Shown: piece by piece, positions 44,841 to 57,043 of the stretch | Layout of the letters: every line of letters starts with the position of its first letter | Position numbering within the stretch: the stretch's first letter is position 1 | Assembly: GCA_963745835.1 (NCBI GenBank) | Contig: CAVUZH010000024.1 | Span: forward strand, 64,001-128,000 | DNA from: an uncultured delta proteobacterium | GTDB lineage: Bacteria > Desulfobacterota > Binatia > UBA9968 | Length of the DNA stretch: 64,000 bases | Direction: 5' to 3' | Notes under the pieces: model-generated | Told to the model about the DNA's origin: nothing | The model's input: the letters and a program-made list of their open reading frames with translations, nothing else | Database searches by the model: none | Translations under genes and position numbers: made by a program

Positions 44841-45879
44841 TCAAGGCCGGATCGTAGTCAGCAAAGTCTTGTTTTCAGTTGCGGCCTGAGCCATGGATTC
44901 CAAAGCCGCGCTAATGTGACCGTTTACATTCTGTGAAACTGATTCACTGGCAACGCGAATGGCGTTTTTTATTGCCAGCGCAGTTGACCCGCCATGGGCG
45001 ACAATGGCGACTCCATCCAATCCCAGCAACCGTGCTCCGCCGTATTCGGCGTAATCAAGCTTTCGATAGGCATGCCGCAGCGATCTGTCGGGTCAGCAAA
45101 TAGCCCAAGCGGCTCAACCAGCTTTTCTCAAAGCCGCTTTTTAAAATTTCGCCGGCAAAGCTCGCTACCCCTTCCATGGTCTTCAGTGCCACGTTTCCTG
45201 TAAAGCCATCGCACACGATGACATCGACCTTACCGTTGAAAAAGTCCCGGCCTTCGACGTATCCGACATAGTTTACCGGCGCGTTGTCGAGAAGCTCGCT
45301 GGCCGCTCGGGTCAACTCGTTCCCTTTGCTGTCTTCTTCGCCGTTGCTTAGCACACCGACTCGCGGATTGCCGATACCCAACCCACGCTCTGCGTACACC
45401 GAGCCGATGATCCCAAACTGTAGTAACTGGCGCGGCTTGCAGTCGACATTGGCTCCCGCATCGATGATGATGGTTCCCTTAGATGTTCCGGGGACGATAG
45501 CTAGAATCGCGGGTCGAGTGACTTGAGGTAAAGTGCCGATGACCAGCATCCCGATGGCCATCATGGCCCCCGAGTTTCCGGCGCTGACGACGGCTTGCGC
45601 ATCGCCGCGCTTGATCATCTCGAACGCGACCTTCATCGACGAATCTCTCTTCCTCAGTGCAATGCTGGGGGATTCGTCCATAGATACCGTTTGTGTGGCG
45701 TTAATAACAGGAAAACGGGGGAGCTTGCCGCCGATGCGCAAACATTCTTGTTCAATGGCGAGTTTGTCCCCGACAAGAATCAATTCCGCATCGACGTCTT
45801 GGGCCGCAAGCAGCGCGCCTTCAACAACAACCGCCGGGGCATGATCTCCCCCCATCGCGTCGACTGCGATTTTCGGCAT
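44841..45879 (-). CDS. plsX: Phosphate acyltransferase PlsX; one extra base near 45087
   Basis: IAVDAMGGDHAP, SAGNSGA, CDGFTGNVALK; second frame continues RSLRHAYRKLDYAEYGGARLLGLDGVAIVAHGGS. Confidence 0.93.
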
Positions 45880-49165: not shown

Positions 49166-50335
49166 TTACAAGTGATCAGGGACAGGTTCACTGGCCTCAC
49201 GAAGAGCCTCCTCAATCTCGCTTTTAACCTCCGGGTTAGCTTCTGAAAGCAATTTCTGCCGCAGTGTCGCGAGCGCCTCAGATGTACCAATCCGGCCCAG
49301 CGCCCATGCGACATGACCGCGAACTAGTGGCTCTTCGTCATTCAGTGCCTCGGTCAGCGCCGGCACGGCTTCGGGCGCGCGATTATTGCCCAGCGCCACG
49401 GCTACATTGCGCAAAAATCCACGTCGTTTTGCCCGGACAATGGGACTGCCGCGAAACCGCCGGCGAAATTCCTCTTGGTCGATCGACAGCAGCGCAACCA
49501 AATCGGGAGCATAAAGGCCTTGGCGCGGCAGGTAAGACGGTTCATCGGTGGAATTCGCTTTAACATTATAAGGACATACTTCCTGGCAGATGTCGCAGCC
49601 GAAAATGTGATTACCGATAAGGGGTCTCAGATGACGTGGAATAAAACCCTTGAGCTCGATCGTAAGATAGGAGATGCAGCGACGCGCATCCAAAAGATAG
49701 GGCCCGATGAAGGCGCCGGTTGGGCAGGCTTTTAGGCACAGGTCACATTGACCGCAGCGGTCACGAATGGCCTGATCATAAGCAAGGGGCAGACTGGTAA
49801 ACAGCTCACCAAGGAAAAACCAGGAGCCTTTGTTCGGCGAAATCAGCTGAGTATTTTTCCCGATCCATCCTATGCCGGCACTACCCGCAAAGTCCCGCTC
49901 TAGAATCGGGCCGGAATCGACGAAAGTTCTGCCTTCCACCGTCTCGCCGCCAATCTCACGAAGAAATACGAGCAGGGTTTCCAGTTTATCCCGGATAATC
50001 TCATGATAATCATCACCCCAAGCATAGCGCGAGATCCAGCCGCGCCCGCGTTCTGACGGGGTTGGCCGTTTAAACGGCGTGTAGTAATTCATCCCCACGG
50101 AAATGATTGACACCGCCCAGGGGACAAGCAGCCGTGGATCGCGCCGCAAAAGCTCGGTTCGCTCCATATACTCGAGATGACCGTGAAGTTTCTTCCGCAG
50201 CCAATCAGCGAATGACTCCTCGTGCGGCGGCACCCGCACTGGAGAGATTCCAACGAGTTCAAAGCCGAGCCTTTGCGCTTCATTCTTGATGCGCTGAGAC
50301 AGCTCGGCCAAATTCGGCTCAGCGGTGGAAATCAT
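49166..50335 (-). CDS. queG: tRNA epoxyqueuosine(34) reductase
   Basis: ISRYAWGDDYH, VDSGPILER, CGQCDLCLKACPT, CISYLTIE, GCDICQEVCP, HEAT tail. Confidence 0.95.
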   Translation of the reverse strand: MISTAEPNLAELSQRIKNEAQRLGFELVGISPVRVPPHEESFADWLRKKLHGHLEYMERTELLRRDPRLLVPWAVSIISVGMNYYTPFKRPTPSERGRGWISRYAWGDDYHEIIRDKLETLLVFLREIGGETVEGRTFVDSGPILERDFAGSAGIGWIGKNTQLISPNKGSWFFLGELFTSLPLAYDQAIRDRCGQCDLCLKACPTGAFIGPYLLDARRCISYLTIELKGFIPRHLRPLIGNHIFGCDICQEVCPYNVKANSTDEPSYLPRQGLYAPDLVALLSIDQEEFRRRFRGSPIVRAKRRGFLRNVAVALGNNRAPEAVPALTEALNDEEPLVRGHVAWALGRIGTSEALATLRQKLLSEANPEVKSEIEEALREASEPVPDHL

Positions 50336-50398: not shown

Positions 50399-50848
50399 TC
50401 AGTGAAGCGGGCCGCCGCCGCGCGACCCGGTGACAGTGGAGTCCAACAATGGGCGTCTGCCGGCAAAGCCCTCCTCAATTCTGTGCCAGTAGGCAATCTC
50501 AGGTTCGCCGTATTGCCAACAAAGAAAGACAATCTCTTCTCCCAATAAACAGGGAAAATCGAGCAATCCTTGTTCTACGCCTTTGCACACACAGCCATGT
50601 TGTTGAATTTCATTGACAGCGTCGTTGATCTGCTTGATCAAGGCGGCGATCTCATCGTTCCGCTGTAAACGGCGCATCAGGTTGGGCGTTTCCGGGTCGA
50701 TCTGCTCCGCGCGAATCACTATTTCGCTCTTGGCCCGCAGGCGTCGTATGATCTCCAAAATGCGTTCGATCGTCGGACGCACTATAGGCAAAAGGGCGTT
50801 CGCTTCGTTGATCGTGAACAATCTGGAATAAGGCGAAGATGAATCCAT
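50399..50848 (-). CDS. DUF2203 domain protein
   Basis: FTINEANALLP, GLLDFP...LCWQYGEPEIAYWH..EEGFAGRRP. Confidence 0.88.
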   Translation of the reverse strand: MDSSSPYSRLFTINEANALLPIVRPTIERILEIIRRLRAKSEIVIRAEQIDPETPNLMRRLQRNDEIAALIKQINDAVNEIQQHGCVCKGVEQGLLDFPCLLGEEIVFLCWQYGEPEIAYWHRIEEGFAGRRPLLDSTVTGSRGGGPLH

Positions 50849-50885
50849 ATCATCCACTTTGGTCGTCGGCACTTCAACGAGAAAG

Positions 50886-51750
50886 TTATAGCCGCAGGCC
50901 GGTTCGAACAGCTTTAAGTAATGCAATGTTATCGGAATGGCCGGTCATGTGAGCCGTGATTTTGCCGCGAATGGGTCTTCCCAGCAGATAAAAATCCCCG
51001 ATAATGTCAAGAATTTTATGACGCGCCAGTTCCTCCGGAAAGCGCAAGTCTGTGTTGACGATCTTCTCATCATCGATCAAGATACAATTACTAAGCTTGC
51101 CTCCGTTGATCAAGCCGAGCTTTTGCATTTTCTCCATATCGCGCAGAAAACCGAAGGTCCTTGCCGGCGCAATTTCTTCTTTGAAGGAAGTCGGACTCTG
51201 ATGTGTGAATAGTGTATTCCTGCACGCCGACCGGTTTCGGATAGTTCAGAACGTAGTGGACCGAAAACGTCTCCGCTGGTTCAATACTGATCCATTCTCC
51301 TGCGTCGTCACCGATGCGATAAGGACGATCAATGACGATTCTTGACCAGCTTTCGTCTTGCTCGTGCAGCCCAGCTTCCTCGATGAGTTCGCAAAACTCC
51401 GCCGCCGATCCATCTAAGATCGGAACCTCGCCTTGAACTTTCACCAGCAAGTTCGTAATTCCGTAACTATGGAGGACCGCCAAAAAATGCTCTACGGTCG
51501 CAACCGTAAAACCACGATGGCTCAATGATGTCGCAAATCCCGTTGATCCGACATAATCTAAATGCGCGGGTACGCTCACATCACCTGAGATACCCTCGAA
51601 TAAGATGCCGCTATTTGGCGGGAGCGGATGCAGAATCAATCCTGTTTTGATACCTGAATGCAATCCTTGACCTGAACTCACCACGCTTTTTCTTAAGGTC
51701 TTTTGTCGGATCGGTTCGGCGGATGTGACTATCCGCGGAGCTGTACTCAC
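50886..51750 (-). CDS. lpxC: UDP-3-O-acyl-GlcNAc deacetylase LpxC domain (one extra base near 51210); probably the C-terminal part of a REC-LpxC fusion
   Basis: RQKTL...GQGLHSG, TVEHFLA, EVPILDGSA, EIAPARTFGF, RHKILDIIGD, TGH; Zn and catalytic residues present. Confidence 0.92.
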
Positions 51751-52207
51751 TGAGTCGGTCTCCTCGACCCCATGGCGCTGTGCCGATTTCGGAGAGGCTC
51801 TGAGCTACAGGGAGCTCGCCCAGAGCGCGTTGCACGGTATGAAGCAGGCCGTCGAGCGAGACCGGCTTTTCGATAAAATCGAAAGCGCCAAATTTAGTTG
51901 CGGTCACCGCCGTGTGGATATTTCCGTGCCCGGAGATCATCACGACATTGGTTGAAGGCTTCTTGCTCTTGATCTCCTTGAGCAAGCCAATACCATCGAT
52001 TTTCGGCATCCAGATGTCGAGCAGCACGAGCCCGGGTTGCTCCGCTTCGATCATTTCCAGGACGCAAGTGGCATCGGCGGTATCGAGTACCCGATATCCC
52101 TCGTCCGTCAGCACTTCTTTAACCGACTCCCGAACCTTGTCCTCATCATCGACAACAAGGATGGTTTTCTGAGATGATAACTCCTTCACCGCCCCTCCAT
52201 TTTTCAT
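51751..52207 (-). CDS. NtrX-type response regulator receiver domain with no AAA+/HTH; probably fused to LpxC
   Basis: ILVVDDE, LLDIWMP, MISGHGNIHTAV.ATKFGAFDFIEKP; as assembled, its frame runs about 140 nt into lpxC before stopping at 51611. Confidence 0.85.
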
Positions 52208-54438
52208 AGCTGCGCAGCCTTCCTTTTAAACTCGCGTAGCGCGCCCTGCTCCCGCACCGGAAACTCTATCACGAACCTGGTGCCGCGCGGTTCGTTGTTC
52301 CGTACCCGAATATAACCGCGATGATCTTCGACAATTTGATTGACGATGGTTAGCCCCAGGCCGGTACCCTGTTTTTTAGTGGAAAATCCAGGCTCGAATA
52401 TTCTAACTCGAGCTTCCGCCGCCATGCCGCAACCATCGTCGGCAACTTCAAGGTAGACCGTGTTCCGAGTGCGATCATAAGCACTCGATATCTGCACATG
52501 GCCGCCGTCGCCAACGGCGGCCACGGCGTTGTCTAATAAGTTAATCATTACCCGTTTGATTTGCTCCCGATCGAGCTCTAGCGCCGGCAACTCTCCCGGC
52601 CGGAATTCAAAATCGATATGGTTATGTCCTTCCTTAAACAGGAATAGCGCGTCCTGGACAATCACGTTTAGGTCGTTGGGCACCGGCTGAGCCGTAGGTA
52701 GTCTTGCGAATTGCGAAAACTCATTCACCAGATTCTTGAGCTCGACCACCTGCTGGATAATCGTCGTCGTGCATTTGTCCAGTACCGCGCCGTCCCCTTG
52801 CAACAGTTTAGCATAGCGTTTGCGCAGTCTCTCGGCCGAGAGCTGTATCGGCGTGAGCGGATTTTTGATTTCGTGAGCGATTCGCCGCGCCACTTCGCGC
52901 CACGCTTCCATCCTCTGTACTTTTTGAATCTGGGTAATGTCTTCCAGAAAAATCATGATACCTAAGCTGTCATTAGCATCATCTCTGAGGGTAGCGGCGG
53001 TCGCAAATACGGTAAGGAGATGGTCTGGTAGCTGTATCTGCAATTCAGTCTCGCTGCTTTCGCGATCTTTGAGGTTGTCGATCAAGTCGCGCATGACCAT
53101 TAGCGGCGCGGTTTCAAACGCTTCCCTGTAGTATCTTCCGAGAGCAGCAGAACCATCCACACCTAACATTTGTTCGGCCGCCTTGTTCCAAGAAGTGATC
53201 TTCCCATTCGGGTCGACAGCAATCACTCCAGCGGTAATATTAGCGAGAAGTGTTTCAACGAACTTGCCGCGACGCAACAATTCCAGGTTGCTCTTCTTTA
53301 AGTCTCGGGTCATCTGGTTGAAAGACTCAACCAAGGTCCCTAACTCGTCATCGCCGGCCGCCTCAATTTGATAATCCCAGTTGCCATGAGCGACTTCGTG
53401 AGTCCCCGCCGCCACCTGCTGAATCGGGATCGTGATTCCTTTGGCAAGATAAAGGCCGAACCAAGTCGCGGCGAAGATAATCACCAGCGTAATTAATAGC
53501 AGGGTCAGAATGTAACTGTTTTTCACCGGGTTCTTCAGAAAACCAAGGTGCTTGTACTGCTCATAGGACCGGGAGATTTCGAGGGCGCGTTTGGTGATGC
53601 TCTTCGGCACGTAATAATCGACTACCACGACTCCCTGAATCCGCTTGCCGCTGTCATAGATCGGAACACCGCCGCGAATAACGTCGCCCTCGCCGAAAGC
53701 CTGAGTTCGGGTAACTTCCAGGCCGCGCAGCGCCCGGTTAAGGAAATCGGCTTCAGCCTTGATGCTAACTCCAGTGGGTACCTGGTCATTGAAAGCCACT
53801 ACTACCGGCAGGTGATCTGGTGAAAATAATTCCACAGTGCCGAGATTGTACTCACGCTGCTTGATCTGGATAAATTCTTTAAGATCGCTCCGCCGTCCGG
53901 TCTCGAACAGCCCCTGTTCAGTGACGCGCCGGCTTAGCTGCCGTGCATAGAACAGCGCGTTGTTTGCCGAGTTTTGATAATAGGTCTGGCCGATTTCCAA
54001 AGATCCCTGAAGCGCGGTCTCGACCTGTATATCGAACCACCTTTCAAAGGAGCGGGTGACGAATCCCCCGGCAATGACGAACAGCAACAGTGTCGGAATC
54101 AGCGATAGGCCGACAAATGCAATCACCAGGCGAACTCTCAGTCGTGAGCCCAGGATCCGCCGTTTGCGTTCGAATACCAGCTTCACCAGGTTTCTGACGA
54201 CCAGAAAAACCAGGAGAATCAGAAGAATGATGTTGATGTTGATTAAGAGAAAGAAAACTATGTTATTGCTGAGAGAATATTCCGACGAGACATCGGGAAG
54301 CTGCACCTCGAAGAATGCAAAGGCCAGCACCACCAGTGAAGTGATGAGAATCGCCAGTCCTTCACGCTTTCGTCGTTTAGTTTCATCCAACGTGGGCGTC
54401 TCGCTGATCTGCTGTTGGGTTTTGAAGGTTTTGCTCAT
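52204..54438 (-). CDS. ntrY: NtrY-family sensor histidine kinase (TM, periplasmic, HAMP, PAS, HisKA, HATPase)
   Basis: WREVARRIAHEIKNPLTPIQLSAERL, DELGTLVESFNQMT, STKKQGTGLGL. Confidence 0.9.
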   Translation of the reverse strand: MSKTFKTQQQISETPTLDETKRRKREGLAILITSLVVLAFAFFEVQLPDVSSEYSLSNNIVFFLLININIILLILLVFLVVRNLVKLVFERKRRILGSRLRVRLVIAFVGLSLIPTLLLFVIAGGFVTRSFERWFDIQVETALQGSLEIGQTYYQNSANNALFYARQLSRRVTEQGLFETGRRSDLKEFIQIKQREYNLGTVELFSPDHLPVVVAFNDQVPTGVSIKAEADFLNRALRGLEVTRTQAFGEGDVIRGGVPIYDSGKRIQGVVVVDYYVPKSITKRALEISRSYEQYKHLGFLKNPVKNSYILTLLLITLVIIFAATWFGLYLAKGITIPIQQVAAGTHEVAHGNWDYQIEAAGDDELGTLVESFNQMTRDLKKSNLELLRRGKFVETLLANITAGVIAVDPNGKITSWNKAAEQMLGVDGSAALGRYYREAFETAPLMVMRDLIDNLKDRESSETELQIQLPDHLLTVFATAATLRDDANDSLGIMIFLEDITQIQKVQRMEAWREVARRIAHEIKNPLTPIQLSAERLRKRYAKLLQGDGAVLDKCTTTIIQQVVELKNLVNEFSQFARLPTAQPVPNDLNVIVQDALFLFKEGHNHIDFEFRPGELPALELDREQIKRVMINLLDNAVAAVGDGGHVQISSAYDRTRNTVYLEVADDGCGMAAEARVRIFEPGFSTKKQGTGLGLTIVNQIVEDHRGYIRVRNNEPRGTRFVIEFPVREQGALREFKRKAAQL

Positions 54439-54473: not shown

Positions 54474-54686
54474 TTATCTTCTAAAGAGGTACAGAACAAG
54501 GCTGATGAGGATGCTGATAACAATGCACGTGGCGATTGGAAAGTAAAAACTGAAGCGACCTCGCTGGACGTAGATATCACCCGGCAAATGCCCGAGCCAA
54601 GGGATTTTTCCACCGAATGTAAACAGTACTCCGACGGCAATGATTGCGACCCCCAGAATGATCAAAGTTCTACCGAACTCAGGCAT
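54474..54686 (-). CDS. DUF2905 domain membrane protein
   Basis: LGHLPGDIYVQRGRFSFYFPIATCIVISILIS. Confidence 0.9.
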   Translation of the reverse strand: MPEFGRTLIILGVAIIAVGVLFTFGGKIPWLGHLPGDIYVQRGRFSFYFPIATCIVISILISLVLYLFRR

Positions 54687-54734: not shown

Positions 54735-55808
54735 TCAAAACAAACTAGGTTGGTTCTTGGGGGCACTGCCCTTTTGTCCCCTAGGTTTTTGGCCGAAGTG
54801 ATTGTAGGCCAACGGCGTCGCCATCCGCCCTCTAGGCGTTCGCTGGATGAAACCCGCCTGAATCAGAAATGGCTCATAGACATCTTCAATGGTGTCTTTC
54901 TCTTCGCCAATGGCCGCTGCCAGAGTCTCGATTCCAACCGGTCCTCCGGAGAACTTTTCGATCAGGGTCAATAGCAACATGGTATCCATTTTATCGAGGC
55001 CGATGGAGTCAACCTCCAACATCTGTAACGCCTCGACCGTTACCGCGAGCGTAATCCGTCCGGCTGCTTTGACCTGTGCATAGTCGCGCACACGGCGTAG
55101 CAGGCGGTTGGCGATTCGTGGTGTGCCGCGCGACCGCCGCGCGATCTCGGCAATTCCGTCCTGTTCGCCAGCCACGCCGAGAATCACAGCCGAGCGCTGG
55201 AGAAGATCAGTAAGGGTTTCCGGTGAATAAAAATCTAGCCGGAAGCTCAGGCCGAAACGATCCCGCAGCGGCGAGGTCAGCAGACCTGATCTTGTCGTTG
55301 CGCCAATCAAAGTAAATGGCTTCAACTCAAGCTTGATGGATCGGGCCGCCGGACCTTGTCCAATCATGATATCGATCTGAAAATCTTCCATGGCGGGATA
55401 TAGAACCTCTTCGACAATATGGTTGAGGCGATGAATTTCATCGATGAACAAGATATCGCCTTCCTCCAAATTGGTGAGAATCGCCGCCAGATCACCGGCA
55501 CGCTCGATAACCGGCCCTGAAGTCCCTTTGATATTGACGCCCATCTCACGGGCGATGATGTAGGCCAGGGATGTTTTTCCTAATCCTGGCGGGCCATGAA
55601 ACAAAAGGTGGTCTAAAACCTCGCCACGACCGCGGGCTGCGTCGATGGCTACTTTAAGGTTTTCTTTAACCCGATCTTGGCCGACGTATTCCGCGAATCC
55701 ACGGGGCCGCAGATTTACTTCGTAGTTCAGATCCTCATCGCTTCGCGCCGGCGAGATCTCCCGCGATTCCGAGGATTTGTCCGAATCGATGATGGGTGAG
55801 TGGGCCAT
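54735..55808 (-). CDS. ruvB: Holliday junction helicase RuvB
   Basis: [34 protein letters not shown]. Confidence 0.98.
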
Positions 55809-55816
55809 AATCAGTG

Positions 55817-56410
55817 TCAGCGACTCATGCGCCGAAGTACCTCTTTAATCACCTGCTCGAGACTGTGATTGCCCGCTTGAACGCAGTCACGCACGTTCTT
55901 TTCAACTTCCACTTTACGATAGCCCAGATTAACGAGAGCCGAAACAGCGTCTTGGAGCAGCTGCGGGTCGCGCCCTTGCGCAGGAGTTTCTGTGGCTTGA
56001 GATTCGAGAAGCGCAAAGCGATCACGAAGCTCGACGATCATGCGCTCGGCTAGTTTCTTGCCCACGCCAGGGATCGATACCAAGCGCAACTGATCGCCTC
56101 CCTTGATCGCACGGGTGAGTTCATCGGCGGGGATTCCCGACAAAATGTTCAGCGCAAGTTTAGGTCCGATGCCGGCGACGCCGTTGAGTTGCAAGAAAAC
56201 TTGTTTCTCCGCCGGCTCCTGGAAGCCAAAAAGCTGGAGAGCATCCTCGCGCAAGTGCGTATGGATATGTAGCCGGACCGGCGCGCCGATCTCCGGCAGA
56301 TGATAAAACACATTGAGCGGGATGAAGACCTGATAACCGACTCCACCGACATCGACGACGATTTCTCCTGCAACCTTCTGCGCCAGAGTGCCGCTGATTT
56401 GAGCGATCAC
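55817..56410 (-). CDS. ruvA: Holliday junction DNA-binding protein RuvA
   Basis: [37 protein letters not shown]. Confidence 0.97.
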
Positions 56411-56452
56411 GACTGTGTGATCTTCCGGTTAATTTGAACGTCGTTCGACATC

Positions 56453-57043
56453 TCAAGGAAGGATCGACTTGCGCGGCCGCAACGGCGCAATGGTTCTTGG
56501 CAGGGCTTCGATGAGGCGCGCGCGCAACACCTGCATATGAAGATGGCAAATTGCCGCAGCGAGCGCGTCCGCGGCGTCGGCCGGCAACTTGCCGCGAAGA
56601 CGCAACAAAGAAGCAATCATCATTTGTACCTGCTGTTTAGTGGCGTGGCCGTATCCTACCACCGCGGCCTTGATTTCAACGGCGGCATACTCATGAACTG
56701 CCAAGCTCCTTCGGGCAGCGGCGAGAATGGCTACGCCGCGCGCCTGACCGAGCTTGAGCGCGCTCTGCGCGTTTCGCGCGAAAAAAACCCGCTCGACGCA
56801 AACACCATCCGGATTATAGGAATCGATGACTTCCTCAAGGCCGCGGTAAATGCGCTCCAGCCGAGCCGCCTGCCCCTGAGTGCCCGCCGTAATCACCGTG
56901 CCATGCGCCAGATGGACCAATGAAGTGCCTGTCGCCTCAACGACTCCCCAACCGGTGACTGCCGAACCGGGATCGATACCGAGAACCCTGCGCGCCAGCG
57001 GTTGTGCATCAGCCCTGCGCCGGACAGGCGAAGACCAGCTCAA
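56453..57043 (-). CDS. ruvC: Holliday junction resolvase RuvC
   Basis: [31 protein letters not shown]. Confidence 0.96.

Follow-up and report, generated by a model that had tools for sequence, protein, structure and literature searches.

Analysis of a 64,000-nucleotide (nt) stretch of DNA from an uncultured delta proteobacterium of the class Binatia (GenBank assembly GCA_963745835.1, contig CAVUZH010000024.1, positions 64,001 to 128,000), hereafter the window, revealed a gene in which an NtrX-type receiver (REC) domain appears to be joined to LpxC, the UDP-3-O-acyl-GlcNAc deacetylase. This gene, REC::lpxC, directly follows ntrY, which encodes a membrane sensor histidine kinase, and all genes of the locus lie on the minus strand (Table 1). 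A preliminary description made from the letters of the sequence had proposed that ntrY overlaps by ATGA an intact NtrX-type receiver that is followed by neither an AAA+ nor a helix-turn-helix (HTH) domain. Both points were confirmed. The overlap is found at 52207..52204, the motifs DD, LLDIWMP, SGHG and FIEKP are all present in the REC frame, and Pfam detected no AAA+ or HTH domain in that frame.

As read, the REC frame extends from 52207 to 51611 and encodes 198 amino acids (aa). Its first stop, at 51611, lies 140 nt inside the lpxC frame, as had been predicted, and the lpxC frame is open back to 51804. The lpxC sequence itself is present in two pieces: 51750..51091 matches positions 1-175 of the 268 of the Pfam LpxC model with 147.8 bits, and 51137..50886 matches positions 190-266 with 92.9 bits, the cut-off being 27 in both cases. 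No uninterrupted LpxC frame exists in the window, since a frameshift at ~51212 splits the domain; LpxC is cut off after ~175 of the 268 model positions, with HKxxD and GH falling outside the frame. The catalytic residues that had been described as intact (TVEH, HKxxD and GH) were nonetheless found in the pieces, as TVEH, HKILD and GH.

Table 1. Features of the ntrY-REC::lpxC locus (window coordinates)
Feature	Position	Strand	Basis
ntrY-type membrane sensor histidine kinase, 744 aa	52204..54438	-	Pfam: NtrY_N, HAMP, PAS, HisKA, HATPase_c
ATGA, ntrY stop (TGA) overlapping the ATG start of REC::lpxC	52204..52207	-	sequence
REC::lpxC gene, ~439 aa without the two extra bases; three frames in the window	50886..52207	-	three-frame translation; single ORF in relatives
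Receiver (REC) domain, phosphoacceptor Asp in LLDIWMP	51833..52162	-	PF00072, 107.9 bits, residues 16-125
REC-to-LpxC linker, flexible, unconserved	51706..51832	-	alignment of fusions and AlphaFold2 pLDDT
Extra base 1, 1-nt insertion, sense-strand A; puts REC out of the lpxC frame	~51781	-	
LpxC domain (UDP-3-O-acyl-GlcNAc deacetylase), split at ~51212; stop codon 50886-50888	50889..51705	-	PF03331, two frames
Extra base 2, 1-nt insertion, sense-strand C; splits LpxC	~51212	-	
DUF2203 gene directly 3' of the fusion gene	50399..50926	-	PF09969, 126.5 bits
DUF2905 small membrane protein gene, 70 aa, between ruvB and ntrY	54474..54686	-	PF11146, 85.4 bits

The sense strand was aligned with four genomes of the same genus, which are 87-97% identical to it. 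This alignment identified the extra bases as an A at ~51781 (GGC[A]CAG) and a C at ~51212 (ACA[C]TAT), both of which are missing from all four congeners. The first had been assigned to the GGGG run at 51768-51771; the alignment places it ~10 nt upstream, with the same consequence for the reading frame. The second had been expected at ~51210, in good agreement with the site found. Without the two bases the frame encodes 439 aa, as does the orthologue P0001 in the 97%-identical congener G001, and this fits the single protein of ~435-440 aa that had been predicted.

Contigs from public soil and rhizosphere sequencing runs were compared at the same sites. Three runs, each from a different study (X2, X3 and X11), cover both places. 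One base is left out at 51212/51213 by four contigs and at 51781/51783 by three; these are all of the covering contigs, and the window's version of either site was found in no contig of the three runs. Run X1, the best match to the window among the DNA runs and possibly its source sample, covers neither site. Six metatranscriptome runs contain 22-31% of the sampled sequence words, which is no evidence on expression of the gene.

Interruptions of this kind are not confined to REC::lpxC. When three congeners were compared with the window over 20 kb, nine insertions and three deletions proved unique to the window. Three of the insertions are in clear coding sequence, two in REC::lpxC and one in plsX at ~45084; the other unique indels lie outside the listed open reading frames (ORFs) of at least 90 aa. 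The 1-nt insertion in plsX (PF02504, positions 2-266 of 324; 45055-45879, minus strand) splits the gene into 281 and 83 aa in different frames, and an intact frame of 351-352 aa is present in each of G001, G004 and G006. Furthermore, at least four genes for NtrC-type sigma-54 activators in the window's genome (G000) are broken up into neighbouring pieces read in different frames (C15:252967-254296, C19:430006-431335, C14:222848-223757 and C22:9599-10363). This genome consists of 25 contigs with a total of 7.28 Mb, compared with 3.9-5.5 Mb in congeners, and its contamination is 9.3%; such an assembly resembles an unpolished, perhaps mixed, long-read bin. Because the extra bases are unique with respect to both congeners and covering contigs, and because plsX and the NtrC-type genes are broken in the same manner, the two single-base insertions in REC::lpxC are most likely assembly errors.

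Loci were then compared in 27 of 30 relatives of the same genus, family and order, representing three families; G009, which has fragments on a short contig only, and the unpublished genomes G012 and G018 were left out. The REC-LpxC junction is in one frame in all 27 loci and the protein has ~437-457 aa. A complete single frame over receiver and LpxC is present in 25 of them. In G025 the contig ends inside the receiver and the junction is in frame, and in G006 the junction is in frame despite a frameshift in the receiver. That frameshift is a 1-nt deletion of G006's own (L005, equivalent of window position 51959); the assembly has 30 contigs and shows many further unique 1-nt indels over the 20 kb compared. 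Separate REC and LpxC proteins, the arrangement that had been named in advance as speaking against a fusion, were seen in none of the 27 loci.

The combination of the two domains is equally consistent in a collection of 5.8 billion proteins, where each of the best 120 homologues carries both PF00072 and PF03331. Their sources name them only LpxC and label the metagenome-assembled genomes (MAGs) 'Deltaproteobacteria bacterium' or 'Candidatus Binatia bacterium'; here and below, the taxon names of homologues are these source labels. The architecture that the preliminary description suggested looking for in related genomes was found both in the loci and among the homologues. A second lpxC had also been suggested as something to look for, and there is none in the window's genome: it has one LpxC locus, together with intact LpxB and LpxK. 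Among the 30 relatives (G012 and G018 counted), 29 have no LpxC-family match apart from the fused gene; the exception is G030, in which another match lies at a contig edge. We regard it as very probable that REC::lpxC is a real single-ORF fusion and that its frameshifts are artefacts.

The intact orthologue P0001 was compared with family models. Its LpxC half scores 254.3 bits with TIGR00325 (equivalog cut-off 187.25), and its receiver half 132 bits with the NCBIfam NtrX model NF051870, against 102 bits for FixJ, the next family. With PF00072 the receiver of the window reaches its 107.9 bits against a cut-off of 30.2. The solved structures closest to it are 5m7n (105 bits) and 4d6x (102 bits), both presumably Brucella NtrX, and the next family scores 82; no solved chain spanning both REC and LpxC was found in this comparison with the PDB. 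NF051870 as a whole-protein model demands 600 bits, and the 132 bits obtained come from model positions 3-139 of 452, that is, from the receiver and linker. On these scores the protein belongs to both the LpxC and the receiver family, and it derives from the NtrX family without belonging to it.

Residues were counted in an alignment of 44 diverse fusions with identity down to 30%. The receiver signature is well kept: D20 is present in 41 of the 44, the phosphoacceptor D64 in 43, and D21, S92 and K114 in all. LpxC residues E239, H240, H396, K397, D400, D404 and H423 are invariant. We take the zinc ligands and catalytic residues of LpxC to be E78, H79, H238, D242 and H265 in E. coli numbering; such residues are present in 44/44 fusions as well as in the pieces of the window. 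The linker between the two domains has 23-61 aa (median 35) and its sequence is not conserved. An AlphaFold2 model built on the same alignment had a mean predicted local distance difference test score (pLDDT) of 85.5 and a predicted template modelling score (pTM) of 0.83, with residues 134-162 below a pLDDT of 50. That the pTM reached 0.83 despite the disordered linker may be taken as a weak hint. A two-chain prediction of a complex between REC and LpxC, run without controls, gave no support and speaks neither for nor against a contact.

Representatives of clusters at 50% identity were searched, and the best 150 were classed by domain. Among these 150, 47 are REC-LpxC (fragments included), 15 are long forms with the order REC-AAA+-LpxC (650-736 aa), 7 are AAA+-LpxC, mostly cut at the N terminus, 77 are LpxC only and 4 are REC only. 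In two members of the REC-LpxC group (491 and 505 aa), receiver and LpxC are separated by an HTH_8 domain. The long forms come from 'Deltaproteobacteria' and Nitrospinota MAGs, one cluster being named NtrX by JGI, and the REC-HTH-LpxC forms from Nitrospinota and Candidatus Entotheonellia; loci from named records add Thermodesulfobacteriota and 'Nitrospirae' MAGs. The GAFTGA loop and the Walker-B Asp-Glu pair are motifs of bacterial enhancer-binding proteins. The P-loop is kept in 13 of the 15 long forms and the Walker-B Glu or the GAFTGA loop in none, so that all 15 lack the marks of a sigma-54 activator. A recognisable HTH directly before LpxC is still present in many of them.

A quick maximum-likelihood tree was made from 108 LpxC domains, namely the rows with at least 240 aligned residues from the 150 representatives and P0001. 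In this tree 59 stand-alone LpxC proteins form one starred clade, and all long and most short forms are on the other side. Short forms are nested in groups of long forms on starred branches, for example P0140 within P0128/P0151/P0154 and P0131 beside P0142.

A further 150 genomes of the phylum were sampled, and the following figures refer to the matches listed. A full-length single-frame match was found in 19 genomes, including all four of the window's class. LpxC is part of a frame of 690-837 aa in 11 genomes and of 450-497 aa in 4, and most of the remaining genomes have a stand-alone LpxC of ~300 aa. Sixteen of these loci were inspected directly. All four unfused loci examined have the order lpxC - ntrY - ntrX on one strand, and their NtrX-like protein (458-507 aa) has GAFTGA, Walker B and HTH, with both GAFTGA and the Walker-B Glu kept in 4/4. 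A strict TGGYRY-N5-YTGCW motif lies 40-50 nt before the unfused lpxC frame in two of the four. This sigma-54-type -24/-12 motif, at position 1066 of L072 and position 1113 of L074, is the only strict match on its strand in each 7-kb locus; no strict motif was found before lpxC in the other two. A sigma-54 promoter before unfused lpxC is thus suggestive. Among the long forms, those of L034 and L035 are directly preceded by NtrY and those of L036 and L037 are not. One genome, G064, has an unfused lpxC immediately before an ntrY that is not followed by ntrX (L086, contig C33) and, in addition, a 442-aa REC-LpxC (L079, contig C11); it is possibly a snapshot of duplication before loss of the old copy.

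The existence of long and HTH-containing intermediates and of unfused lpxC-ntrY-ntrX clusters leads us to propose that an NtrX-type activator was fused and then lost AAA+ and HTH repeatedly. The simplest reading of the sequences compared would be that a complete regulator was fused to LpxC once or a few times and that these parts were then lost repeatedly, and we are confident, if short of certain, that the fusion protein derives from an NtrX-type regulator. The preliminary description had envisaged the collapse of an ancestral ntrY-ntrX-lpxC order. Its central element, an NtrX-type regulator joined to LpxC, agrees with the intermediates and the nested short forms; the ancestral order does not, as lpxC-ntrY-ntrX is what was seen in 4/4 loci.

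The kinase of the window scores 36.5 bits with NtrY_N (cut-off 23.2), all five of its NtrY domains are above their Pfam cut-offs, and it is the sole NtrY_N match in its genome. No NtrX regulator above the cut-off was found in that genome, the best scoring 397 bits against 600. The ntrY adjacency looked for in related genomes is well established: the fusion gene is immediately preceded by a gene for an NtrY homologue in 25 of the 27 loci, and the remaining two loci are truncated at contig edges. Together with the ATGA overlap, this supports a predicted pairing in which NtrY is the cognate kinase of the fusion receiver. A triple fusion of kinase, REC and LpxC was considered for G106, G140 and G173, where open frames reach 1007-1423 aa, and was rejected, as ntrY is in another frame; the long frames reflect chance openness upstream of a normal REC::lpxC gene.

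The surroundings of the two genes are also conserved, with the order ruvB - DUF2905 - ntrY - REC::lpxC - DUF2203 - queG kept in much of the family. A DUF2203 gene is downstream of the fusion in 19 of the 27 relatives' loci, and 10 loci have a DUF2905 homologue at the equivalent position. For 18 of the 19 DUF2203 genes the match starts only at residue 26-27 of the ORF as listed in the window, so that its true start is probably the inner ATG at ~50848 and not the TTG at 50926. No NCBIfam match was obtained for this gene. Further out, ruvB, ruvA and ruvC (54735-57043, minus strand) lie upstream and queG (49166-50335, minus strand) downstream, all ordinary and intact.

Our preferred explanation, which we hold with moderate confidence as a whole, is a two-gene two-component system consisting of an NtrY-type kinase and a response regulator with LpxC as its output domain. 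An NtrX-type sigma-54 activator, clustered with lpxC, would have been fused to LpxC; its AAA+ and HTH domains would then have decayed while receiver and enzyme were kept. The conservation described above indicates that the reading frame and the phosphorylation residues of the receiver were maintained by selection as the other parts of the parent regulator decayed. NtrY would phosphorylate Asp64 of the receiver and thereby change the output of LpxC, and the flux of lipid A would track an envelope or redox signal sensed by NtrY. As to regulation of LpxC activity or stability by phosphorylation as such, we lean slightly towards acceptance.

How phosphorylation would act is less clear. The lead model is similar to CheB: the tethered receiver would restrain or stimulate the catalytic domain, and phosphorylation would alter their contact. 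It is favoured because the linker is too variable for a signal passed through a fixed helix and because LpxC is active without a partner elsewhere, and taken by itself this particular mode is doubtful. Phosphorylation-driven dimerisation or controlled proteolysis are the alternatives. A bolder version of the history, in which a regulator was captured by its own target, so that the former sigma-54 activator of lpxC is now a phospho-switch on LpxC through which NtrY tunes lipopolysaccharide (LPS) within seconds, is put forward only tentatively.

A number of observations weigh against the two-component explanation. Both phosphotransfer from NtrY and the effect of phosphorylation on LpxC are things that we infer. 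The long unconserved linker offers no structural hint of coupling. One of the 44 fusions, P0140 (REC-LpxC, 454 aa), has Asn at the phosphoacceptor position, and the receiver of P0151, a long form of 695 aa, is degenerate and has lost the acidic pocket together with the Asp; the receiver is therefore not indispensable everywhere, and these two proteins are possibly phosphorylation-independent variants. Fusion genes from beyond the window's class often lack an adjoining kinase (L036, L037, L079, L080, L082 and L083). With regard to origin, the tree is the product of a quick search on a sample biased to the query, the support of the main fused-group branch is 93 and unstarred, and the sigma-54-like motif before unfused lpxC is present in only two of four loci. 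Finally, the evidence on the two extra bases comes from congeners and environmental contigs, and a strain-specific broken gene keeps a small probability.

Several of these observations could be explained if the fusion is real but its receiver is a relic or a phosphate sink, LpxC being constitutive and NtrY signalling mainly through another regulator. AAA+ and HTH decayed after fusion, so relic domains may persist for a while, and the altered receivers of P0140 and P0151 and the many fusion genes without an adjacent kinase are what this explanation would lead one to expect. It is difficult to reconcile, however, with the retention of the five signature residues (D20 in 41/44, the others in 43-44/44) while AAA+ and HTH were repeatedly lost, or with a frame preserved through a linker of freely varying sequence. 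In addition, no NtrX-type regulator is above the cut-off in the window's genome, and in 5/5 genomes with a kinase-less fusion gene one full-length NtrY homologue is encoded elsewhere with no REC gene beside it. Overall we find a relic receiver unlikely.

It could also be that the receiver controls the turnover of LpxC and not its catalysis, phosphorylation exposing LpxC to, or hiding it from, an AAA+ protease, in place of the C-terminal degron route of E. coli. The disordered linker of the AlphaFold2 model would suit such a function, as would the end of the fused LpxC in the window's family, which comes directly after the last helix and leaves no tail; LpxC is under proteolytic control in E. 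coli as well (PMC3333781). The locus is not linked to any gene for an adaptor or protease, though, and control of turnover is in our judgement quite unlikely. The LapB zinc-ribbon model PF18073 (28 positions) gave one match in the genome, but it also matches 10 of 14 control genomes, Gram-positives included, and is thus uninformative.

If the sequence were correct as given, the locus would be a pseudogene or split gene of this strain, encoding a stand-alone receiver with an out-of-frame tail and a broken LpxC. The window as read does hold both insertions, and the site comparison covers runs other than the reads of the source sample. Moreover, as the preliminary description cautioned, the sequence GAGGAG is present 9 nt 5' of a GTG at 51750 and might allow separate translation of LpxC. 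That part of the caution concerning the presence of the motif holds; its suggested role finds no support, for these letters are mere Glu-Glu codons of the variable linker and are not conserved in congeners. Even a separately translated LpxC would have HKxxD and GH out of frame after the second shift, in a genome with no other LpxC locus and with LpxB and LpxK intact. As the bases are also missing from four congeners and every covering environmental contig, and plsX and at least four NtrC-type genes are broken alike in the same assembly, we consider a genuinely split gene very unlikely. Programmed frameshifting through both sites, suggested by two +1-type interruptions in one gene, can practically be discounted, because the shifts are missing from all close relatives and environmental contigs, the sites are unconserved and have no slippery run, and the same type of insertion also breaks plsX.

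The two-component explanation would have consequences for the control of an essential pathway. LpxC sets the rate of lipid A synthesis; its excess or shortage is lethal, the enzyme is an antibiotic target, and its control outside E. coli is an active question. Here a standard phosphorylation switch is joined to LpxC and has been kept while the parent regulator decayed, with a kinase encoded next door. If the explanation is true, outer-membrane synthesis in an entire class of soil bacteria, as well as in several other lineages, would be subject to direct post-translational control by a two-component system, and LpxC would be governed in a way unlike those described so far. The series from the unfused cluster through the full regulator-enzyme fusion and the HTH-only intermediate to the receiver-enzyme would be an unusually complete record of transcriptional control turned into control of the protein itself.

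Enzymes are already known as outputs of two-component regulators. A search of the literature revealed no paper that describes a fusion of LpxC to REC or NtrX, subscription journals and supplements being out of reach, and the words 'fusion', 'fused' and 'receiver' are absent from a 2025 review of lipid A regulation (PMC12444477). The architecture is visible in public domain annotations and may appear in some census.

In E. coli, LpxC is controlled by proteolysis involving FtsH, LapB and YejM, a route which differs from the one proposed here in that a stand-alone LpxC is degraded. Another natural fusion of LpxC, LpxC-FabZ, has a metabolic enzyme at the C terminus, in contrast to the N-terminal signalling domain of REC-LpxC; its model NF009667 matches P0001 partially, with 205 bits against a cut-off of 465.

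The nearest relatives by composition are NtrY and NtrX. The kinase has the same architecture and the receiver is closest to NtrX receivers; however, NtrX is a DNA-binding REC-AAA+-HTH protein, whereas the fusion protein has lost AAA+ and HTH and carries its receiver in covalent linkage with LpxC. In R. sphaeroides, NtrYX shapes the cell envelope, and its loss raises lpxC mRNA 8.8-fold, an effect judged indirect (PMC7240162). By role, the closest parallel is DVU2934 of D. vulgaris, an NtrC-family regulator for which lpxC is the single mapped target, with lpxC adjoining the orthologous operon in S. fumaroxidans (PMC3333781). It resembles the present case as a sigma-54-type regulator dedicated to lpxC, and the linkage lpxC-ntrY-ntrX is seen in 4/4 unfused loci of the window's phylum. 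It differs in acting on transcription as a separate protein, and the likeness to the NtrX-like genes described here is one of role.

In CheB, too, a receiver at the N terminus is followed in one chain by a flexible linker and, at the C terminus, by a hydrolase, a methylesterase. The methylesterase is unrelated to LpxC, a zinc deacetylase, and REC-LpxC is known from its sequence and a predicted model. The receiver-linker-enzyme layout is the same in both proteins, and by analogy CheB provides the working model of a receiver that may restrain or stimulate the catalytic domain to which it is tethered.

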